Shown here piece after piece: positions 5,020 through 62,842 of a stretch of 64,000 nucleotides of DNA. The DNA is from Squalus acanthias. Its lineage: Eukaryota. A program made the translations under genes and the position numbers. Location: the NCBI GenBank assembly GCA_030390025.1, contig CM059426.1, forward strand, positions 109,120,001 through 109,184,000, read 5' to 3'. Every line of letters starts with the position of its first letter. Position 1 is the stretch's first letter. Under the pieces are notes generated by a model. That model saw only the letters and a program-made list of their open reading frames with translations. It made no database searches and was not told where the DNA came from.

Positions 5020-5585
5020 TTGGTAACAACTTTGTCTTTGAGTCAGAAAGTCATAGGTTAAAACCCCAGTCAAGGACTTCAGCACCTTATCTAGGCTGAT
5101 ACTCCAGTGCAGTACTGAGGTGTCATTTTATGGATGAGATGTTAAATCGAGGCTCGATCTATCTGTTAAGGTAGATGTAAAAGATCTCAATCTTAGTATT
5201 CAAAGAAGAGAAGGTATTTATCTGTGTCCAACCAACAGCACAGAAGACAGTTTAACTGCTGCTTGATGTGCACCAGTTGATTGCCAGGTGTCCCTACATA
5301 ATGTGGAGATGCCGGTGTTGGACTGGGGTGGACAAATGTGAGAAGTCGCACAACACCAGGTTATAGTCCAACAGTTTTATTTGAAATCACAAGCTTTCGG
5401 AGCAGCGCTCCGAAAGCTTGTGATTTCAAATAAAACTGTTGGACTATAACCTGGTGTTGTGCGACTTCTCACATTTTCCCTACATAATAACAGTGATTGC
5501 ACTTCAAAATACCAATTCATTGCATATGAGAACTTGATGTCCCAGGGATGTGACAAGGTGCTATATAAATGCAAGTTCTTTCATC
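5020..5585 (+). mobile_element. DeuSINE-like SINE interrupted by fold-back copy 1
   Basis: tRNA-like head (agtcagaaagtcataggttaaaacccc), body, and tail ggtgctatataaatgcaagttc. Boundaries approximate. Confidence 0.7.
5303..5476. mobile_element. Penelope-like pLTR-derived fold-back insertion, copy 1 (inside a SINE)
   Basis: Perfect 70-bp inverted arms (5334-5403 / 5407-5476) with a 3-nt loop, a one-sided tail at 5303-5333, and TSD TCCCTACATAAT (5291-5302 and 5477-5488). Confidence 0.85.
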
Positions 5586-9371: not shown

Positions 9372-9523
9372 TGGTATGTTGGCCTTCATTGCAAGAGGAT
9401 TTGAGTACAGGAGCAAGGATGTCTTACTACAGTTATGATGCGGAGATGCCGGTGTTGGACTGGGGTGGACAAAATTGAGAGGTCGCACAACACCAGGTTA
9501 TAGTCCAACAGTTTTATTTGAAA

Positions 9524-9566
9524 TCACAAGCTTTCGGAGCTATCGATTTGCTCCTTCCTCAGGTGA
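9524..9566 (-). ncRNA. Minimal type I hammerhead ribozyme motif (antisense twin)
   Basis: Exact reverse complement of 9588-9630. Confidence 0.78.
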
Positions 9567-9587
9567 AGTAAATTACTTCAATTTACT

Positions 9588-9630
9588 TCACCTGAGGAAG
9601 GAGCAAATCGATAGCTCCGAAAGCTTGTGA
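9588..9630 (+). ncRNA. Minimal type I hammerhead ribozyme motif (Penelope type)
   Basis: UCAC-CUGAGGA-A-GGAGC(AAAUCGAUA)GCUCC-GAA-AGCU-U-GUGA: stem I, conserved core, stem II, palindromic AGCU stem III, CUU cleavage triplet. Confidence 0.8.
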
Positions 9631-9751
9631 TTTCAAATAAAACTGTTGGACTATAACCTGGTGTTGTGCGACCTCTCAATTTTACTACAGTTATACAGGG
9701 CCTTGGTGAGACCACATCTGGAGTACTTTGTGGAGCTTTGGTTTCCTTATC

Positions 9752-9848
9752 ATTGTACCTTTACCTGACGAAGGGGCGACAGCTCCGAAAGCTTGTAATT
9801 TTAAATAAATCTGTTGGACTATAACCTGGTGTTGTGCGACTTCTCATT
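9752..9848 (+). mobile_element. Penelope-like pLTR fragment, one-armed divergent copy (inside CR1 ORF2)
   Basis: Same arm sequence (gctccgaaagcttgtaattttaaataaatctgttggactataacctggtgttgtgcgacttctcat). Apparent short TSD TTATC; interrupts the CR1 codons for FWxPYL. Confidence 0.8.
9761..9798 (+). ncRNA. Minimal type I hammerhead ribozyme motif (covariant)
   Basis: UUAC-CUGACGA-A-GGGGC(GACA)GCUCC-GAA-AGCU-U-GUAA. Stem I has a compensatory C-G to U-A change relative to the other copies. Confidence 0.8.
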
Positions 9849-10905
9849 TTTATCTAAGAAAGGATATACTTGCCATAGAGGGAGTGCAGCGAAGGTTCAC
9901 CAGACTGATTCCTGGGATGGCAGGACTGTCGAGGAGAGATTGGGTCGACTAGGCCTGTATTCACTAGAGTTTAGAAGAATGAGAGGGGATCTCATTGAAA
10001 CGTATAAAATTCTGACACGGCTAGACAGACTGGATGCAGGGAGGATGTTCCCCCTGGCTGGGGAGTCTAGAACGAGGGGTCACAGCCTCAGGCTACGGGG
10101 GTAGGACATTTAGGACTGAGATGAGGAGAAATTTCTTCACTCAGAGGGTGGTGAACCTGTGGAATTCTCTACCACAGAAGGCTGTGGAGGCCAAGTCACT
10201 GAATATATTTAAGAAGGAGATAGATTTCTAGACACAAAAGGCATCAAGGGGTATGGGGAGAGAGCGGGAATATGGTATTGAGATAGAGGATCAGCCATGA
10301 TCATATTGAATGGTGGAGCAGGCTCGAAGGGCCGAATGGCCTACTCCTGCTCCTATGTTTCTATGTTTCAAAGGGATTTACAGTGCAGTGGACAGAGTAG
10401 GTTGTATGCCACAATCTTTCGTAGACTCATCTTTACTTGTGTGTTGTAAGAACAACTGACAAATGGCAGCTGATCGTGGGCTGGGAGACTGTTGAAACAG
10501 GGAGATGTACAAACAGAATAGTCAGCTGTGACTCCTTAGTTTAAACCCTCCCCGAGTGCTGTTGGGGAGGGTTTAAATTAGCTTGGCAGGGGGATGGGCA
10601 CCAGGATGTAGCATTAGAAAGGAGAAACAAGGTGCATAAAGTATTGGGAGAGACAGAGAGCACTAGAGTAAGAAATAGTACGGTATTAAGTGGGGTCAGA
10701 GTAAGAGAGAATACAAGAAGGTCGAAGATAGATTTACAGTGCATGTGTGTAAACGCATGAAGAGTAGTTAGTAAGGTTGGTGAGCTGCAGGTGCAAATAG
10801 CCACATGGGAATATGATGTCGTGGTGATAACAGAAACCTAGCTCAAAAAAGGGCAGGATTGGGTACTAAATATTCCTGGATATAGGGTGTTCAGGAAAGA
10901 TAGGG

Positions 10906-12356: not shown

Positions 12357-14362
12357 GGAAAGAAAGGAGGTGGGGTGGCAGTATTGATTAAGGAGAATAT
12401 TAGTGCTGGAGAGAGGATGTCCTGGAGGGGTCAAGGACAGAATCTATTTTGTTAGAGTTGAGAAACAATAGAGGTGCCATTACACTACTAGGTGTATTCT
12501 ATAGGCCACCAACTAGTGGGAAAGATATAGAGGAGCAAATTTGCAGGGAAATTACAGAGAGGTGCAAGAACTATAGAGTAGTGATAATGGGGGACTTCAA
12601 TTATCCTAATATAGACTGGGATAGTAATAGTGTGAAAGGGCAGAGAGGGGGAAGAATTTCTGAAGTGTGTTCAGGAGAACTTTCTTATCAGTACGTTTCC
12701 GGCCCAACGAGGAAGGAGGTATTGCTGGATCTGGTTCTGGGGAATGAGGTCAACTGGAGCAAGTGTCAGTAGGGGAACATTTAGGGAACAGTGATCATAG
12801 TATCATAAGGTTTAGATTAGCTATGGAAAAGGACGGGGGTAATCTGGAGTAAAAATGCTTAATTGAAGGAAGGCCAATTTCAGTGGGTTGAGAACGGATC
12901 TGGCCCGGGTAAATTGGAATCAATGATTGGCAGGCAAAATTGTAATCTAAGAATGGGCTGCCTTTAAAGAGGAGATGGTTTGGGTACAGTTGAGGTACAT
13001 TCCCACGTGGGGGAAAGGTAGGGCAACCAAAGCCAGAGCTCCCTGGATGACGAAAGAGATAGAGAGTAAGATGAAGCAGAAAAAGGGGGTGTAGAGATGT
13101 CCGGTTGAGAGTATAAGTGAGAACCAGGCTGAATATAGAAAGTTCAGAAAGTGAAAACGAAATGAGGGGCAAAGAGAGAGAGTATGAGAATAGATTGGCA
13201 GCTAACATAAAAGGGAATCCAAAAGTCTTCTATAGCCATATAAATAATAAACTGGTCGTAAGAGGAGGGCTGGGGCTGATTTGGGACCAAAAAGGAGACC
13301 TTCGCATGGAGGCTGAGGTACTAAATGAGTACTTTGCATCTGTCTTTACCAAGGAAGAAGATGCTGCCAAAGTCATAGTGAAAGAGGAGGTAGTTGAGAT
13401 AATGGATTGGATAAAAATTGATTCAGGAGGTACTAGAAAAGCTGGCTGTACTTAAAAGTAGGTAAGTCACCAGGACTGGATGCTGGGGCAGGTAGGGTGG
13501 AAATTGCGGAGGTGCTGGCCATAATCTTCCAATCCTCCTTAGATATGGGGGTGGTGCCAGAGGACTGGAGAATTGCTAATGTTACACCCTTGTTCAAAAA
13601 AGGGTGCAAGGATAAGCCCAGCAACTACAGACCAGTCAGTTTAACCTCGGTAGTGGGGAAACTTTTAGAAATGATAATCAGGGACAAAATTAACAGTCAC
13701 TGAGACAAGTGTGGATTAATTAAGGAAAGCCAGCACAGATTTGTCAAAGGCAAATCGTGTTTAACTAACTTGATTGAGTTATTTGATGAAGTAACAGAGG
13801 GGCTTGATGAGGACAATGCGGTTGATGTGTACATGGACTTCCAAAAGGCGTTTGATAAAGTGTCACATAATAGGCTTGCCAGCAAAGTTGAAGCCCAAGG
13901 AATAAAAGGGACAGTGGCAGCATGGATATGAAATTGGCTAAGTGACAGGAAACGGAGAGTGGTGAACTGGAGAGTGGTGTTCCCCAGGGGTCGGTACTAG
14001 GACCACTGCTTTACTTGATGTATATTAATGACTTGGACTTGGTGTACAGGGTGCAGATGACACAAAACTTGGAAATATAGTGAACAGTGAGGAGGATAGC
14101 GATAGACTTCAAGAGGACCTAGACAGGCTGGTGGAATGGGCGGACACCTGGCAGATGAAATTTAACGCAGAAAAGTGCGAAGTGATACATTTTGGTAGGA
14201 AGAACGAGGAGAGGCAATATAAACTAAAGGGTACAATTCTAAAGGGGGTGCATGAATAGAGAGACCTGGGGGTATATGTGCACAAATCGTTGAAGGTGGC
14301 AGGGCAGGTTGCGAAAGCGGTTAAAAAAAGCATATGGGACTCTGGGCTTCATAAATAGAGGT

Positions 14363-14557
14363 CATGATGCGGAGATGCCGGTGTTGGACTGGGGTGGACA
14401 AAAATGAGAAGTCGCACAACACCAGGTTATAGTCCAACAGTTTTATTTGAAATCACAAGCTTTCGGAGCTTCACCTGAGGAAGGAGCAGCGCTCCGAAAG
14501 CTTGTGATTTCAAATAAAACTGTTGGACTATAATCTGGTGTTGTGCGACTTCTCATT
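14363..14557. mobile_element. Penelope-like pLTR-derived fold-back insertion, copy 3 (inside CR1 ORF2)
   Basis: 69-bp arms (14401-14469 / 14491-14559, one mismatch), 21-nt spacer, TSD TTCATAAATAGAGGT (14348-14362 and 14558-14572). Confidence 0.88.
14471..14507 (+). ncRNA. Minimal type I hammerhead ribozyme motif
   Basis: UCAC-CUGAGGA-A-GGAGC(AGC)GCUCC-GAA-AGCU-U-GUGA. Confidence 0.8.
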
Positions 14558-17084
14558 TTCATAAATAGAGGTATAGACTACAAAAGCAAGGAAGTTATGA
14601 TGAACCTTTTATAAAACACTGGTTCAGCCTCAACTGGAGTATTGTGTCCAATTCTGGGCGCCACACTTTAGGAAGGATGTGAAGGCCTTAGAGAAGGTGC
14701 AGAAAAGATTTACGAGAATGGTTCCAGGGATGAGGGACTTCAGTTACGTGGATAGACTGGAGAAGCTGGGGTTGTTCTCCTTAGAGAAGAGAAGGTTGGG
14801 AGGTGATTTGATAGAGGTGTTCAAAATCATGAGGGGTATAGATAGAGAGAAACTGTTCCCTTTGGCGGAAAGGTCGAGAACCAGAGGAGACAGATTTAAG
14901 TTGATTGGCAGAAGAACCAAATGGCGACATGAGGAAAAACATTTTTACGCAGCGAGTGGTTATGATCTGGAATGCGCTGCCTGAAAGGGTGGTGGAGACA
15001 GATTCAATCGTGGCTTTCAAAAAGGAATTGGATAAGTACCTGAAGGAAAAAAATTTGCAGGGTTATGGGGAAAGGGCAGGCGAGTGGGACCAGCTGAAGT
15101 GCTCTTGCAGAGAGCTGGCATGGGTTCGACGGGCCGAATGGCCTCCTGTGCTGTAATCATTCTATGATTCCTGTTGGGTACTATGATCAGTTCATTGGGG
15201 CAAATCGATTTTCACTGTGTTCAAGAGAAAAATATCACCCATTTAGTCACTGTATAAGTCAAATTCTATCTAAGTTCCAGAATGATGTGTTTATGCAAGA
15301 AGTAAATCAACTGGACACAACATATTTACAGTTGACTGCTTGTGCATTTTATAGTCGATGTCTCAGGTGCAAATATTGTGTATCCTATTAATGCATAGTC
15401 ATAATATTAAGTACATCCCCAGGAGTGGGGAAGTAAAAATCTAATCAAGGCAAATCCTGACAAACTTTTGATGACAGAATATGAAAATATTTAAAGGGGG
15501 CTTTACCATGGCTGTGGTGAATGCTGCAATAGAAATTTAATGGTTTACTGGTGGCGCAAAGGCCTCGTTGCCCAACTAGTATAATTACCAAACCAAAGCT
15601 TCACAAAAGAATATTTGTGCTGTACAATTTAAAACATGTTGCTACTCCATGAGAATGAACCTCTCATTGTTTCTAAACTTAACACTTTTCTGGGTGCAAA
15701 CCTAACTGATGTGCCCTTTTAAATTGCCTTTTAAGATAGTGCAGACTGTGAATTCCCCCACTATACCACAGTCATTCTTCTGTGTTTTGAACTCACTTAA
15801 AGTTGTTATTACAAGGGTTATAAATCAAGAAAAGATTAAAGAACCAAACACACAGGGTGGTCTGATAGGTTAAGTGGCCGAGCAGGGTCACAGGAGAAAT
15901 TTTTAAGAGAATAAATTGCTTATGTCTGAAAGATACTGTGGAACATTTTAGTATTCTAGGTAACACTTCTTGCTTTCAAAAGGTTTGATAAAGTCCTTTG
16001 CTTTATACTTGATTTACATCTCCATTGCTCTACCACCAGAATTTTTTTGAAAGCTGACACAATCTGTATCTGTTTTATGCTAACATGTTTGTAATTCAAA
16101 ACCTTTCTTTTACCAATTTTGTCCCATTCCATGCATCTTCCTCCCAAATTTAATGAATTCTGCTCCAATATTTCCCACTGAGATTATGGAAATGAAAAAA
16201 AAAATCTAACTTAAAATAAATTATATGTTTAAAAACTAATAACCTGTGTTTTGCTAATGGAATGTACACTGGGGATCTATGTTTAATGGAGCATAAGCTA
16301 TTCATGTCATGGCTGACGTAAATCCCAAGCACCAATTGTGTACTGGACTCCATTCTTGAGATGTATTTTCAGAGGAGGTTTGATCAAGAATACTGCTATT
16401 TCAAATGTATTTGTTTGCTTTATGTACATAAAAGGCATATAATGCAAAAACAAAAGTCAATATTTTGAGTTGGAAATTAATTCCACAAAAATCTCCTTGA
16501 AGTGCTGTACAGTATACGCTATGTACACGTTGGAACACGTTTTTAAACAAACCTTTCCTATTATTTGCCTCTGGGCACTTCTAAAACTTGTAGTTTTAGA
16601 TCTTGGGCTCGTGAGTTTTGTCTATTTTAAGCAGGATTTTTACATCCTCCAAGACATTTTACAGCTTCAAGTTACAGGAAGAGGATTGGGTTACAGACCC
16701 TCTTGTCTTTTAGACTTAAAAATTTTCACTGGTTCACAGTCAACAAAGTAAATAGTGTACTGAACAGAAGTTAGTTCCAAATTTTAAATATTTTGACAGT
16801 CTGCATGTTTGAAATGTACCAAAATGTATGTATAAAATGTGGTTAGTTTTGTTTTAATAACATGAAAAACAAAATCTAATTATTGTGGCACTTGGGTAAT
16901 TATAGGAAATACTTATTTTAAAGTGCTTAGTTATAGGACATTTGCAGACAGAGAGTGGCAACATCCAGAATTAATGCATATGTGTTTTGTCTACCCTGGG
17001 TTACTGGCTGCACTGTTTGATCTGACTATTTGATGTGTCTTGTTCCTCCCAGACTAATCTCTCTTCTGTCTGAATGTATTCTGT

Positions 17085-17247: not shown

Positions 17248-18241
17248 GGCTCGGATTTTGTGATCGCCGGCGTAACGAATGATTGCGCTACCAGCATCCG
17301 AACCGAATGCGCACTTAATTGCTGGGAACTCTCCACCAAGAAGCTGCTATCAGACGCTGCGGAGTAGAGGGCAGCGTAGTGGCCCACGGGTCCCAGGGTG
17401 CACTGTGTGTGGAAGCTTACCTGGAATCACGTGGGCCGGTGCTCGAATCAGCAAACTGAAGGTGTCTCATTAATACTATTAGAGATCGTAGGGCTATTCC
17501 CCATTTAATCTTTAGTACTTCAAAAATATACTTACATTTGTGATTTTGGGGTCTGTGGTGTTTAAAAAAAGAAGTATGGATAGCTCGAAATTGTGGTGCT
17601 ACTTTGCTTTTTAAAAAAGAACCGATTCAGAGCAAGTTACATTTCCAATAATTTAGATTGAAAATCACCACTACACTTCTGGGTTACACACAACCAAGTG
17701 TTCTCCAGTTAGAATGCTTCCATCCAGAGAAGACTGACCCCAGACCTGCTGCGAGTAGGGCTGAAGAAGTTTTCTCTCTGCAAAGCAAAATTTGAAGTGT
17801 GGCTTTCTTACAGTCTCTGGGAACTATGCCCAGTCTTCCATAATATGCATTTCAGAATCGTCTATTTATTTTTTTCATGTACAAATTGGAAAGCTATTTT
17901 CACCACTTCGTATTACTGTTTAACCTTTCTAATTAAAGGAGTGCAATTTCTTAATTATCTTGTCAGGAGCTATCCCCTTACACTTTGCAAACAGGCTCTG
18001 TGCCTGTTTGCACCAGCCGTAAAATTTTCATACGTAATTACTGGTCAGTTGGTGGGCAGTTAGCCCAACACTGCGCCAGCAATTAGGATTTCAATGTCGG
18101 TGCGGATCATTTGTCAAGACGGAACTTGACATCGCAAGTTTGGGATCTAGCGCATGCGGAAATCCCAAACTTGCTGTCCATTTCAAAGGCGGTATGACGG
18201 CGTACTCAGTACGCCGTCATACCGACCGCATATTCTGGCCC
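17248..18241. mobile_element. Non-autonomous DNA transposon (probably Harbinger-derived), old
   Basis: CpG-rich ends with imperfect TIRs (ggctcggattttgtg / cgcatattctggcc). Terminal segments resemble 52139-52920. Confidence 0.5.
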
Positions 18242-29794: not shown

Positions 29795-30448
29795 ACTTTG
29801 GTTGCTAACGGGGCGCAAAGCAACTAGCGCCTGGGCGCAGTGCCGCTGCCAACGCCTCCCGCGAAATTCAGCGGGAGGTTAGCGGCAGCGGTAACCGTTA
29901 GCGCCCCGCGGCACTGCGCCGCCAGCGATGACGCTATCGCCGTGCGCAGCGCCCTGCTCACGCCCCGGCCGCGATCTTCGGTAGCGCCCCCTGATTTATC
30001 GCCGGATGCTATGTCCGACAGGGTCAGGGGGGCCTATCTGCGGCTGGGGCGGTGTAAATTAAAGAGACGGTGGCGGACGGCCATTTTTGTTGCTGGCTGC
30101 CTGGCAGCACCTGCCCCCGTTGCTGTCCCCGGCCTCCTGTGAAGCCCCCCCCCCCCCGCGGGGTGCCGGCTGCGTTCCGTGAGCCCGGCACTTCTCTTGA
30201 GTGCCGGGCTCTTTTGCCGGCACTCCGATCCCTGGTGGCCCAGCTGGGCCCCGGGTCGCGCTGCGCAAGGCCCCCCCCCCCCTTTAATAAGGGGAGGAAG
30301 GCCTGCTGTACCGCGGCGCGACGTGCTGCGATATTCACTCGCAGCGCCCCAAGAGGGAGGTGGGGCGCTTCCAGTAGTGCCCCGCTACCCTCTTGGGGCA
30401 CTACCGGTGAATTTCGGGCGCGGGGGCACGACCCAATTTTTCCCCCCC
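29795..30448. mobile_element. GC/CpG-rich non-autonomous DNA transposon (Harbinger-like), left end truncated
   Basis: Right end CCCAATTTTTCCCCCCC resembles the TIR of 50372-51261; shares ggggcgc/agcgcccc motifs. Confidence 0.6.
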
Positions 30449-45156: not shown

Positions 45157-46740
45157 GGCCGCGATTTTCCCTGGGTCGGTGGTGGGTCGCGGCCCCACCC
45201 CTGTCTCCATCCCGGCCTCCACCATGACTTTCCCCTAATGGGGCTTGTTAAGCCCGCCCAGCGAGTTTCCCGGGCCAATTGATGGAAGCGGGTCTGATGA
45301 TGTGATTTGATGACACTTCATCAGTCGGTTTCCTTAAAGGGGCCATGCGCAAATTTACTTTGACATTTGTGCTGTCAGTGTTCCACAGCATTGAGGTGCC
45401 GCAAACACTGACAATGACTGCACAGAGGTGCACGGCTGCACCCAGGCTCTCCAATGACTCTCTCCATATGCTTATGGAGGGAGTAACAGCACAAAGGGAG
45501 GTTCTCTTTCCTTCCAATGGGCGGAAGAGACCTCCCCAGGATACCAACGCAGCCTGGTTGCACATTGCACAGGAGGGCACAACCAGGGATGTCGTCAGGA
45601 GGACCAGGCTGCAGTGGCGCAAACCTTTCAATGATCTCAGTAGATCACGAAACGTTACTGCAAAGCCACACTCATCACATCCCCATCACTCTGCCTTCCC
45701 TACCCTACTCCTGCACATCCTTACTCACACCAACTTACCTTGCACCTCCACCCATCCCCCTCTATCTACGTTATCACTTCCCTTACTATCCACCCCTCAC
45801 ACTCACCCTCATCCTAGTCCAGTCATACCAACTAACAACACACAAGGATAGGTTTTAGTCAATGTTCATGTGAAGTTTCTGTTAATGTGGTGTAAAACAT
45901 TGAAATCTTTATTTTCAACACTTTGCATTCGTGGTCAGATTTGTGTGCACCTTTGGAAGTGGCTTAGTGAGTTGCAGTGAATGGTGAAACATAACGGTCC
46001 CCGTCCCCCCCCCCCCCCCCCCCCGCAATGCTGATGAATGTGAAAGGAATGGTTTGGGCATTGTAGGGATGCTTTATATTGTTGGTGTGGGGTGGTGTCA
46101 ACCTGACGCATCATGTGGCAGCCAGGGTGTGCAGTGTCAAATGAAGTAAATGTGGCCATGGTGAGGCAATGTGGTTGGGTATTGATGCCCTCTGTCCTGT
46201 GCAGCACCAGGTGATTGTGGAGAAGGTTGGTGTGCCTAGTGATGCTGGTGTTGGGGCTGATGGTGGTCAGATTCTGAGGACCAAGGTGAGAGAGTATAAA
46301 GTGCACCATGCCGATGTAATAGATGGCAGGTGAAGTAGAGATGACAGAAGCAATCTGTCAATGGTGGGAGAGGTAATGAGGTCAGACTGGATGGAGACTT
46401 TTGTAAAGACTTGTAGCACTCTGAATCTGTAGTGGAAATGCAGTTTAGAGAAGCTAGTGGTTAAGGGAACATTTCTCAATCAGCTAGGAGCTTTGACTTG
46501 ATATTTGAAGCTGTCAACTCAACAGCTGATGCAATAGCAAGTGACCTCCTGCCTCAGCTTCACAGACAAGGTCTAGACACAACGGGAAACTGGTGGGTGA
46601 CATTTCAAATTGAGAAAGCTGGGGGGAAAAAAAGCATTGTTAAGTGGCTGTAAACAAGCCGTAATGGTTTGAATTGGATCCCCACCGCTGCCTGTCGGGT
46701 CTGCTCGGTGCTGGCAGACCCGACATTGGGAAATGCAGGA
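45157..46740. mobile_element. Internally deleted PIF/Harbinger transposon (Myb/SANT gene on +, transposase remnant on -)
   Basis: + strand APRLSNDSLHMLMEGV...VLFP...AAWLHIA...RTRLQWRKPFNDL is a Myb/SANT trihelix pattern. The convergent segment is homologous to 56830-57407. Ends approximate. Confidence 0.72.
45414..45650 (+). pseudogene. Harbinger Myb/SANT-like DNA-binding domain remnant
   Basis: Within ORF 45345-45851. W...RT..Q.RK.FNDL spacing of the MSANTD/trihelix family. Confidence 0.75.
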
Positions 46741-58190: not shown

Positions 58191-61100
58191 CAAAATGTCT
58201 CCGCTCTGGGTTGGAATGTGATTTTTTTTTTTGTCTTCACTACAGAGCATGAGTTTGAGTTGTAATATGATTCCATGTCTTTAAAGTGCTCCAATGTTGG
58301 GATGACTGCTTTATAGCTGTAGAGGGAAGTTACAGCAGCAATGTGAAACTTGGCTATAAGGTGTGCATTACAAGGATCAAAAAAGTCCTGCAAAAGGTGA
58401 TAGCAACCTGCACAAGGGACCACACCATTGTACAAAATCAATATTCCTTGCTCCATCAAAATTAATCAATCTGATGTGTTCAGCCTGGTGAAAATCATGG
58501 CTGTTTTCCAAAATATTTCATGATTAGATATGTGCAGAGTCGGTCAGTGCACTCCTCCAATAGATGCCTTCAGTAGTAGTTTGTTCATAACAATTGTAGG
58601 AAAATTTTATGTCGTGCTCGTTTTAGAAGTGCTGATGGTGGAAAAACTCCTCTTGTCAGCCTTGATCAGCTCTTCTGACATTAATAGACATTTAATATAT
58701 TGTAAAATGAAAAAGTTATAGATTTTAATTTTTCTTCCTCTGCCTCTTCAATTACTGCAGAAGATCAGTTTGAAATTCTTCAGTTACCATAATTTTGTCT
58801 TAGACTGCTGAACAATTTAATTTTGTATGTAGTCTGAATATTGTATCAGTGGTACTCATAAAATAGATAGCTTTGATTGTCCTGGAATATTTGTGCTTTG
58901 GTGTACCACACATTCTCATATATAAGTGCTAGTGAGTATAGGAATAGGAGGATAGAGCAGATGAATGCGTGGCTGAAGAGTTGGTGCAGGAGGGAGGGCT
59001 TTAGTTTCCTGGATCACTGGGTCTGCTTCTGGGGAAGGTGGGACCTGTACAAGTCGGACAGGTTGCACCTGAACCGGAACGGGACCAACATCCTTGCAGG
59101 GAGGTTTGCTAGTGCTGTTGCGGGGGGGGGGTTTAAGCTAACTTGGCAGGGGGATGGGATACGGAGTGGAGCTATAGTAGGGGGTGATGCACAGCCAAAT
59201 ATAGAGGAAAAAACAAGTCAGCCTGGAAGGCAGAGCAAATATGTAACGGCACAAGGGAGTATGGCAAGGCTGAATGGCATTTATTTTAATGCAAGGAGTC
59301 TTGCGAGTAAGGCCGATGAATTGAAGGTGTTGATGAACACATGGGAGTATGATATTGTTACTATCACAGAGACATGGTTGAGGGAGGGGCAGGACTGGCA
59401 GCTCAATATTCCGGGGTATAGAATCTTCAGGCGAGACAGAGGGGGGTGTAAAAGAGGAGGGGGTGTCGCAATATTAATCAAGGAGTCAATTACTGCTGTA
59501 AGGAGGGATGATATCTTAGCAGGTTCCTCTGATGAGGCCATATGGGTAGAACTTAAAAACAAAAAGGAGGCAAGCACTTTGCTGGGAGTGTACTATAGGC
59601 CCCCAAACAGTCAGGGGGAGATAGAGGAACAGATATGTAGGCAAATCTCAGAGAAGTGTAGAAATAATAGGGTAATAATAGTAGGGGATTTCAACTTCCC
59701 CAATATTAACTGGGATAGTCAGAGTGTGAAAGGCTTAAAGGGTGCGGAATTCTTAAAGTGCATCCAGGAGAGCTTTTTGAGCCAGCATGTAGAAAGTCCT
59801 ACAAGAGAGGGGGCGGTACTGGACCTAATTCTAGGGAATGTAGCTGGGCAAGTGGTAGAAGTGTTAGTAGGAGAGCATTTTGGTGACAGTGACCATAATT
59901 CGGTGAGATTTAAGGTAGTCATGGAAAAGGACAAAGATGGACCGGAAATAAAGGTTCTAAATTGGGGGAAGGCCGATTTTAATATGATAAGGCAGGATCT
60001 GGCCAAAGTGGACTGGGATCAGCTACTTGTAGGAAAATCCACATCAGAGCAGTGGGAGTCTTTCAGAAAGGAAATAGAGAGAGTACAATGCCAACATGTT
60101 CCCGTAAAAGTCGAGGGTGGGACCAACAAACCCAGGGAACCCTGGATGTCAAGGGATATACAAGAATGGATTACGAAAAAAAGGGAGGCTTTTGGCAGAT
60201 ACAAAGGACTAAACAGTGGAAGCCCTAGAGGAGTATAGAAAGTGCAGGAGGGTACTTAAGAAAAGAAATTAGGAGAGCGAAGAGGGGGCATGAGAAAACA
60301 CTGGCGAGCAAAATAAAGGAAAATCCCAAGGTGTTTTGTAAGTATATTAAGGGCAAGAGGATAACCAGGGAAAGAGTAGGGCCCATTAGGGACCAAAGTG
60401 GCAATCTGTGTGTAGAGCCGGAAGATGTAGGTGAGATTTTAAATGAATACTTTGCATCTATGTTCACTATGGAGAAGGACGATGTAGGCATAGAAATCAG
60501 GCAGGGGGGTTGTGATATACTTGAACAAATTAGTTTTGAAAGGGAGGAGGTTTTAGCGGGCTTAAAAGTGGATAAATCCCCAGGCCCTGACGAGATGTAT
60601 CCCAGGCTGCTGTGTGAGGCAAGGGAGGAGATTGCAGGGGCTCTGACACACATTTTCAGAACCTCTCTAGCCACAGGGGAGGTGCCAGAGGACTGGAGAA
60701 CAGCTAACATAGTACCATTGTTCAAGAAGGGTAGTAGGGATAAACCAGGGAATTATAGGCCAGTGAGCCTAACATCAGTGGTAGGGAAATTATTGGGAAA
60801 AATTCTGAGGGACAGAATTAGTCTCCACTTGGAGAGGCAGGGATTAATCAGGGATAGTCAGCATGGCTTTGTCGGGGAGATCATGTCTGACCAATTTGAT
60901 TGAATTTTTCGAGGGGGTGACTAGGTGTGTGGATGAGGGTGGTGCAGTTGATGTAGTCTACATGGACTTCAGTAAGGCTTTTGACAAAGTCCCACATGGG
61001 AGACTGGTCAAGAAGGTAAGAGCCCATGGGATCCAGGGCAATTTGGCACATTGGATCCAAAATTGGCTTAGTGGCAGGAGGCAGAGGGTGATGGTCGAAG

Positions 61101-61538
61101 GTTGTTTTTGTGACTGGAAGCCTGTGTCCAGTGGTGTACCGCAGGGATCGGTGCTGGGTCCTTTGCTGTTTGTAGTGTACATTAATGATTTAGATATGAA
61201 TGTAGGAGGTATGATCAGTAAGTTCGCAGATGACACCAAAATTGGTGGAGTGGTAAATAGCGAGGAGGGAAGCCTCAGGCTACAGGACGATATAGATGGG
61301 TTGGTTCGATGGACAGAACAGTGGCAAATGGAATTTAACCCTGAAAAGTGTGAGATGATGCATTTTGGGAGGACTAACAAGGCAAGGGAATACACAATGA
61401 ATGGTAGGACCCTAGGAAGGACAGAGGGACCTTGGTGTGCATGTACATAGATCCCTGAAAGCAGCAGGACAGCTAGATAAGGTGGTTAAAAAGGCATATG
61501 GGATACTTGCCTTCACTAGCCGAGGCATAGAATATAAG

Positions 61539-61750
61539 TCATGATGCGGAGATGCCGGTGTTGGACTGGGGTGGACAAAATTGAGAGGTCGCACAACACC
61601 AGGTTATAGTCCAACAGTTTTATTTGAAATCACAAGCTTTCGGAACTATCGCTCCTTCCTCAGGTGAAGTAAGGAAGGAGCGATAGTTCCGAAAGCTTGT
61701 GATTTCAAATAAAACTGTTGGACTATAACCTGGTGTTGTGCGACCTCTCA
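61539..61750. mobile_element. Penelope-like pLTR-derived fold-back insertion, copy 4 (inside CR1 ORF2)
   Basis: 81-bp arms (61580-61660 / 61672-61752), 11-nt spacer, TSD ATAGAATATAAG (61527-61538 and 61751-61762). Confidence 0.88.
61630..61667 (-). ncRNA. Minimal type I hammerhead ribozyme motif
   Basis: Minus strand reads UCAC-CUGAGGA-A-GGAGC(GAUA)GUUCC-GAA-AGCU-U-GUGA, with a G-U wobble in stem II. The + strand twin is truncated and lacks CUGA. Confidence 0.75.
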
Positions 61751-62842
61751 ATAGAATATAAGAGCAGGGAGGTTATGATGGAGCTGTACAAAACGCTAGT
61801 TAGGCCACAGCTGGAATACTGTGTGCAGTTCTGGTCGCCACACTATAGGAAGGATGTGATTGCATTGGAGAGGGTGCAGAGGAGATTCACCAGGATGTTA
61901 TCTGGGCTGGAGCGCTTCAGCTATGAAGAGAGACTGGACAGGCTGGGGTTGTTTTCCTTAGAGCAGAGAAGGCTGAGGGGGGACCTGATTGAGGTGTACA
62001 AAATTATGAGGGGCATAGATAGGGTAGATAGAAAGGAACTTTTCCCCTTAGTAGAGGGATCAATAACCAGGGGGCATAGTTTCAAGGTAAGGGGCAGGAG
62101 GTTTAGAGTGGATTTGAGGAAAAACTTTTTCACCCAGAGGGTGGTTGGAATCTGGAACTCACTGCCTGAAAGGGTGGTAGAGGCAGGAACCCTCACAACA
62201 TTCAAGAAGCATTTAGATGAGTACTTGAAATGCCATAGCATACAAGGCTATGGACCAAGTGCTGGAAAATGGGATTAGAATAGACAGGGCTTGATGGCCG
62301 GCGCGGACACGATGGGCCGAAGGGCCTCTTTCTGTGCTGTATAAATCTATGACTATGACTCTAAGATGAGAATTTTATGCCACTCTTCAAGCTTATTAGA
62401 GGGAGGTATCTTATTTATAAAGTGGAGTTGGGAGACTGATGTTAGATAACTGGTACTGCATAGAGTGGAGGTTACGTATTCTACTTGTAATGCTTTGATC
62501 ATTCTCCCACCAGTAAGTGGAGTTGGAGACTGACTACAGCATCTGATGGAATTGGCAAGTACAATATCCACAACATCCACTCTCGACAGTGCCAGTTTCC
62601 TGTTCCACTTTATCCAGTGCCCTTATTTTTGGCTGGAAAGTAGAATGGTGATTTGATATGCAGCTTCTCTTATAGTAGAGAATGTACAGTAACTGGAGTC
62701 TTTTTTTTAAAAAAAAAAAGAATTTTTTTTAAAATCCTGTTGTTTATAGTTCTTTACACTATCTAGCATATGACTAATCGTAACAGCGAGGAAACATTCT
62801 GTGTGACGCTTCTCAAACTATTTTATTTTAAACACTCTATAG

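Follow-up and report, generated by a model that had tools for sequence, protein, structure and literature searches.

Inserted copies of Penelope-like elements (PLEs) typically carry an inverted copy and a tail on one side, as stated in passages of PMC8557442, where the cycle is called undefined, and more briefly, with the same points on inverted copy, tail and cycle, in a part of PMC8969392. An inverted pLTR and a 31-bp tail within a 9-bp TSD are presented in the portion of PMC3846280 considered here, and palindromes at the junctions are taken there as self-priming on an antisense template. For the anole element Poseidon PAc, excerpts of PMC11167929 on in vitro target-primed reverse transcription report that both strands are cleaved and extended, that AT-rich DNA is preferred and that the protein is a predicted dimer; two reverse transcriptase (RT) start sites bound the tail, uncleaved RNA is the main template and ribozyme cleavage is not needed. 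Figure S2 of the same paper maps genomic ends and, as far as these excerpts go, may bear on the newness of a two-strand reading of integration. Passages of PMC4209133 also describe metazoan PLE hammerhead pairs that lie on opposite strands, 100-700 bp apart.

We analyzed a window of 64,000 nucleotides from Squalus acanthias (GenBank assembly GCA_030390025.1, contig CM059426.1, positions 109,120,001 to 109,184,000 of the forward strand), to which all coordinates below refer. An inverted repeat of 143 nt spanning 5334-5476 is one of four head-to-head inverted pLTR pairs (copies 1 to 4, at 5301-5476, 9435-9683, 14361-14559 and 61538-61752), and a solo arm, copy 5, lies at 9752-9851. A search of the 64-kb window with one arm as the query recovered nine arms in these five insertions and no further match above noise. 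Their features are as follows.

5291-5302, left TSD of copy 1, 12 bp; its final 2 nt coincide with the tail end
5301-5333, minus strand, tail of copy 1, 33 nt, 3 nt less than the tail of copy 2
5334-5403, minus strand, pLTR portion of the tail-bearing arm of copy 1; halts atop the 3' strand of stem II
5399-5411, plus strand, hammerhead stem II, the symmetry axis of copy 1; 5399-5403 is a 5-nt overlap of the arms and loop 5404-5406 has sense polarity
5399-5476, plus strand, tail-less arm of copy 1; finishes in the T-run at the tail base, with hammerhead cleavage predicted from the consensus at 5419/5420
5477-5488, right TSD of copy 1
9424-9436, left TSD of copy 2, 13 bp, within a LINE; right TSD at 9682-9694
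9435-9577, minus strand, tail-bearing arm of copy 2, 143 nt, with a 36-nt tail and the full hammerhead
9578-9579, junction filler of copy 2, 2 nt; near-absent elsewhere (depth 7.7 vs 174,000 in the preceding bin, public run X1)
9580-9683, plus strand, tail-less arm of copy 2, 104 nt
9752-9851, plus strand, solo tail-less arm of copy 5, from a more diverged subfamily; 5-bp TSD at 9747-9751 and 9850-9854, compensatory change in helix I
14348-14362, left TSD of copy 3, 15 bp, within a LINE; right TSD at 14558-14572
14361-14469, minus strand, tail-bearing arm of copy 3; halts atop stem II, as in copy 1
14469-14559, plus strand, tail-less arm of copy 3 with the full hammerhead; reaches 22 nt further 5' than the partner arm and alone has the change at 14534
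61527-61538, left TSD of copy 4, 12 bp, within a LINE; right TSD at 61751-61762
61538-61672, minus strand, tail-bearing arm of copy 4, 135 nt, with the full hammerhead
61672-61752, plus strand, tail-less arm of copy 4, 81 nt; starts within the catalytic core and overlaps the other arm by 1 nt

A single TSD surrounds both arms in all four hairpins, and solo copy 5 is TSD-flanked too (12, 13, 15, 12 and 5 bp in copies 1 to 5, respectively). The TSDs are 75% AT, against 58% for the window, and the emptied sites of copies 2 to 5 align gap-free to sister LINE copies. In each of the four hairpins the tail is confined to one end, where it extends 33-39 nt past the T-run. The inverted arrangement of the pLTRs in four pairs, the TSDs, a minimal hammerhead motif inside the pLTR and a one-end tail of the 30-40 bp class are all features of membership in the Penelope-like group. 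Canonical endonuclease-positive PLE units, as presented in passages of PMC3846280 and PMC8557442, likewise have head-to-head pLTRs, a tail at one end, TSDs and a palindrome or overlap at the junction; they are built from an inverted 5'-truncated pLTR and a 30-40 bp tail, whereas the hairpin copies studied here are truncated, with no ORF between the arms and every pLTR arm shorter than 150 nt. No PLE-type RT or GIY-YIG ORF is attached to these copies, and the 52 long frames of the window searched, out of 104, gave no GIY-YIG match. The best explanation is that the insertions were dead on arrival and derive from a PLE whose own enzyme presumably included an endonuclease. Pattern scans for extra pLTR copies gave none in viral contigs and none in prokaryote genomes; in metagenome contigs a first scan gave none and a second gave two (L001 and L002), which were dropped as chance because they consist of a 20-nt match only, without the pLTR.

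Within the arm, read in sense, a motif scan identified a minimal type I hammerhead that consists of helix I (4 bp), the core, one additional A, stem II (5 bp), GAAA and, where helix III would be, the palindrome AAGCTT. Pairing is intact in 36 of 36 cells over four arms, and one helix I change in copy 5 is compensatory; covariation was no better than in shuffles (115/500; four sequences) and Rfam returned no match at the gathering score. The minimal type I hammerheads in the passages of PMC4209133 share the core, the extra unpaired base before stem II, the G-C closing pair, the palindromic helix III remnant and the 4-bp helix I, and differ in a stem II of 7-8 bp in Schistosoma versus 5 bp in the hammerhead predicted here. 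Cleavage is predicted to occur after AAGCTT, 3' of the core. The nine arms begin 13, 21, 50, 47, 13, 35, 39, 27 and 43 nt upstream of this site, which rules out truncation at the ribozyme cut (9/9 arms extend past it) and indicates that the template was uncleaved. Among the entries listed for public runs, signal at the cut site was restricted to single ones, a joint at 9527 in run X5 and a loose end at 9526 in run X18 (two contigs).

At the opposite side, the tail-less ends fall between +54 and +57 from the predicted cleavage site in all five tail-less arms, a 4-nt window, and the tail ends fall between +90 and +96 in 4/4 cases with a target overlap of 1-2 nt. Clustering of the 5' ends exceeds an exponential-truncation null run with nine mean lengths (tail-less arms, n = 5, <=0.001; tail arms, n = 4, 0.002), with a window that was picked post hoc. 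Most of what a preliminary description had reported on the geometry of the hairpins is borne out: the axis of copy 1 is stem II, one arm of copy 3 stops there (its tail arm ends at 14469), and copies 2 and 4 turn within about 15 nt of the core (15 and 12 nt upstream of it in copy 2, 9 nt upstream and inside it in copy 4). The same is true of the tail that is always at one end, of the constant pLTR boundary at the other, of the clustering of inversion points, within this window, and of the 2-nt microhomology to the target in three copies (2, 3 and 4), which extends to copy 5, with 0 nt in copy 1. A short RNA with a 5' limit near the ribozyme, as it proposed, may exist. The clustering of 5' ends in the window is real, and self-cleavage accounts neither for it nor for such a limit because no arm halts at the cut site. 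Contig depth along the arm is uninformative on the 5' limit of the RNA, as its upstream fall is confounded by stem II variants and the reference end. No arm folded better than shuffles (z from -0.56 to +0.18). On the minus strand of 9435-9527, a predicted pairing of about 9 bp between tail and pLTR would place the T-run boundary in a loop, in an overall fold not above shuffles.

Partner arms differ at 0 of 70 positions in copy 1, 0 of 104 in copy 2, 1 of 69 in copy 3 (position 14534) and 0 of 81 in copy 4, and the four hairpin copies differ from one another by 1-4 mismatches in a common core of 67 nt. The inverted identity halts at the tail-less end, with none in the flanks. We placed contigs of four public runs on the tail arm of copy 2 (with a reference of 152 nt), which yielded 13,229, 8,487, 2,179 and 2,349 contigs; summed depth gives a rough allele share only. 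Runs X1 and X5 are DNA runs from one organism, X1 may be the source sample of the window itself, and X18 is presumably RNA, which is a guess. By summed depth, the two boundary alleles of copy 1 have shares of 37% and 15% in X1 and of 30% and 14% in X5, and the C allele common to copies 2 and 4 has about 29% and about 26%, respectively. The variants shared by partner arms are thus common subfamily alleles, not private to one copy. Independent draws would give the observed alleles in all four partner arms with p <= ~0.001 (one site per copy, depth-based), which argues against such draws and shows one donor. The preliminary description had concluded from variants present in both arms of an insertion that the two come from one template; the match between arms is confirmed, its label 'copy-specific' was wrong, and 'one template' can only mean a donor haplotype, not one RNA molecule, because the shared variants are common alleles. 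The stem II allele of copy 4 (9539) reaches 8% of depth in X1 (10 contigs) versus 0.1% in X5, an imbalance that hints at a recent or individual-specific burst. Among the matches listed, loose ends at 9540-9547 were rejected as inversions, being loop variants, and those at 9435 are the reference leaving the element.

A strand that folds back copies only its own content, so that the second arm is nested in the first. This relation fails in copies 1 and 3 and holds in copies 2 and 4, where the turn has a stem of 0-1 bp or filler. The stem II loop of copy 1 is AGC when read on the top strand, the same sense polarity as in copy 3, and the loose-end consensuses of runs X1, X5 and X6 show the matching antisense reading among the entries listed. 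Because of this polarity, the copy 1 hairpin belongs to the tail-less arm, an argument that requires the donor loop to have had the polarity of copy 3 and of these consensuses. The tail-less arm of copy 1 then has no tail to template, and the tail arm has no loop; in copy 3, 22 nt of the tail-less arm are missing from the tail arm. Since each arm has sequence absent from its partner, copies 1 and 3 did not arise by a single fold-back of either cDNA or antisense RNA, and the self-priming reading given in part of PMC3846280 is not matched by them. Copies 2 and 4 are nested and formally fit fold-back, with a primer stem of 0-1 bp in copy 4 and, in copy 2, either the 2-nt filler or, on a reading of the sequence, a 3-nt self-primed extension followed by a slip. 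Copy 5 terminates at the common tail-base boundary and has no partner arm. Overlap between the tail-less end and the target amounts to 2 nt in four copies (2, 3, 4 and 5) and to 0 nt in copy 1; at random sites in the window, at least 2 nt is reached in about 10% of cases, and AT-rich targets inflate such overlaps. An overlap of 5 nt at the inner junction, as in copy 1, is reached by about 2% of random junction pairs. The copy 1 target (5290-5294) opens with GTCC, as does the sequence that follows the T-run in the element, and the G is missing at the right junction (5474-5480), a near-overlap with one base skipped.

In twin priming of L1, which is said to go back to Ostertag and Kazazian (2001), the two cDNAs reportedly derive from stretches of the RNA that do not overlap, with a second site that is variable. 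Passages on this process are also found in 10.1101/2024.12.14.628481. The likeness to the hairpins is that both target 3' ends prime cDNA, as proposed here, that the inversion lies within one TSD and that the junction has little or no overlap; here, too, the inversion sits inside one TSD with both RNA 3'-side ends toward the target. The L1 form differs, as the cDNAs here have 69-104 nt in common and start from two constant sites. The hairpins therefore work like twin priming but not in its L1 form. Passages of PMC11167929 on Poseidon PAc provide further parallels, namely a pair of start sites that bound the tail, two target strands that are each cut and extended, AT-rich targets and an uncleaved template. 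In these passages the start sites are not assigned to opposite strands within a single event, nor are inverted copies accounted for, and PAc priming proceeds without target homology in contrast to the 2-nt overlaps found here.

We consider twin priming at two start sites to be, with good probability, the mechanism of the hairpin insertions. The element protein would cut the two strands of an AT-rich target at points separated by 12-15 nt (by 5 nt in copy 5), which matches the observed TSDs and would leave 3' overhangs. One 3' end would then pair over about 2 nt with the end of the RNA tail, and the other would pair with the U-run at its base, a presumed priming that fits the ends and overlaps seen at the insertions. 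Both cDNAs would copy one uncleaved stretch of pLTR RNA; they stop inside the hammerhead or a short way beyond it, at 13-50 nt upstream of the predicted cleavage site, possibly owing to a stall in the folded ribozyme or RNP or to an RNA 5' end located there. The cDNA 3' ends, which share polarity, would be able to anneal only at self-complementary sequence, so that stem II (5 bp) is a natural joint in copy 1 and fold-back is not needed; the other hairpins would have been joined through the 1 nt or the 2-nt filler seen at their junctions. A single donor haplotype may have served both cDNAs as one RNA copied twice or as two RNAs within one complex. Two RNA-templated cDNAs explain all five insertions, and twin priming is favored because of the one TSD per hairpin, the fixed outer ends, the non-nested copies 1 and 3, solo copy 5, the probability attached to allele sharing and the parallels in the passages of PMC11167929. 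The two priming events, at the tail end and at the internal boundary, that the preliminary description had put forward are supported and agree with the two in vitro start sites of that paper, as excerpted; its other option, cDNA fold-back at stem II, is not supported in pure form. The evidence consists of five insertions in one window, and against twin priming stand the copy 1 tail-less end without exact target overlap and the absence of an element ORF in the frames scanned.

Part of the overlap could instead be DNA-templated, if the tail-base cDNA folded, for example at stem II, and copied itself, and the new sense strand annealed to the tail-end cDNA. Such a combination of two primings with fold-back would give identical arms without copying the RNA twice, and the bottom-strand cDNA of copy 1 does end in a perfect 5-bp hairpin (-4.2 kcal/mol as DNA). 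We regard it as improbable, given that copies 3 and 4 offer no more than a 0-1 bp primer stem, that the reverse direction fails for copies 2 and 4 and that both priming sites are still required. Lower again ranks pure fold-back, which seems quite unlikely: a single priming would take place at the tail end, and the cDNA, or else an antisense RNA (as in the passages of PMC3846280), would fold and copy itself until joined to the target at the pLTR boundary. The hairpin at the copy 1 axis, the nested arms of copies 2 and 4, the small palindrome where copy 2 turns and the way in which palindromes at inverted junctions are read in that source all speak for it; it is contradicted in two of the four hairpins, by loop polarity in copy 1 and by the 22 nt in copy 3, and leaves the fixed tail-less end and solo copy 5 unexplained.

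Perfect hairpins are able to correct themselves, and two separately inserted arms might have been homogenized after insertion by gene conversion or quasi-palindrome correction. The preliminary description expected gene conversion to carry identity into the flanks, which it does not reach; correction need not extend that far. This origin is highly improbable with both arms within one TSD, common variants that are subfamily alleles and not private mutations, identity that halts at the tail-less end, and 14534, the sole change not listed at >=1% in the runs, present in one arm only. Long palindromes are unstable and difficult to assemble. Such assembly problems are mentioned in a passage of PMC8557442, and the clustering of turning points could reflect the deletion or non-assembly of long perfect palindromes and the persistence of short ones, a bias that would explain the upper bound of arm length and is just as hard to credit, as it leaves the lower bound unexplained (every arm runs past the cleavage site, and nothing shorter came up when the window was searched with high sensitivity) and solo copy 5 halts in the same zone.

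Copies 2, 3, 4 and 5 all map to a single segment, about 100 nt long (99 nt or 109 nt depending on the reference copy), within the 3' part of a LINE RT gene, their sites at 9424-9436, 9747-9751, 14348-14362 and 61527-61538 being homologous to 43786-43678. Four of the five insertions are thus in this segment, in three different LINE copies and with the tail arm on the LINE 5' side in all, and copies 2, 3 and 4 lie within 38 nt of each other. Simulation gave P = 4e-5 for three of four sites placed uniformly in the window and about 1e-3 with all three first confined to LINEs, AT weighting being similar; it leaves out copy 5, whose host is common with copy 2, and is post hoc for one window. Exact cut sites differ among these insertions. 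Homology-guided targeting was rejected as unsupported, as the similarity of the pLTR to the segment was no higher than that of shuffles (p 0.09-0.88 in 12 comparisons). Among the matches listed, 138 X1 contigs exit the tail end into long, low-agreement flanks, which indicates varied targets for many insertions. A LINE hot spot is possible. The host LINEs, which have RT and APE-type endonuclease domain matches, are presumably CR1-type. One long LINE copy at 58877-62278, with esterase-like, endonuclease and RT domain matches, is split by copy 4.

The hairpins are a real and mostly ordinary footprint of Penelope-like integration, and their inverted-pLTR-plus-tail architecture, palindromic junctions and two start sites are already published. 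What is new here is a simple genomic test between published models, and the possible LINE hot spot. According to passages of PMC8557442, it is undefined how PLEs come to form inverted copies that are tailed on one side. The test of nesting and loop polarity needs a genome only and, in a family abundant enough to place 13,229 contigs of one run on 152 nt, could decide between self-priming and twin priming. Fixed-site overlapping twin priming was not proposed for Penelope in the titles and abstract openings searched, most of the subscription literature, including early Penelope work, lying outside that search; the LINE-segment hot spot, if true genome-wide, would be a target preference not found described in the literature surveyed. 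A far-reaching extension, which we put forward tentatively and think rather doubtful, is that all such insertions result from fixed-site overlapping twin priming by a dimeric Penelope complex with two RNA start sites on opposite strands, that the short arms arise as run-off products from the pLTR-ORF junction, close to the RNA 5' end, like retroviral strong-stop DNA, and that the family is steered in fixed orientation to the ~100-nt RT-gene segment of host LINEs, so that one retroelement would favor a particular region of another as its target.

Several minor observations concern the insertions and their surroundings. At the left junction of copy 5 (9750-9753), a 4-nt match to the tail end runs 2 nt beyond the TSD and may be an abortive 2-nt tail arm, a weak signal that chance could produce. 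The tails of copies 3 and 4 end in ATG on the minus strand (14361-14365 and 61538-61542), possibly an ORF start, and low-agreement loose-end consensuses of X1 and X18, among those listed, extend in the same way. Palindromes at 18190-18224 and 30329-30416 are local, GC-rich and not related to the pLTR. The frame at 45306-45851 has a Myb/SANT-like domain match (PF13873, E 5e-5) and is, we assume by association, possibly a DNA-transposon remnant.
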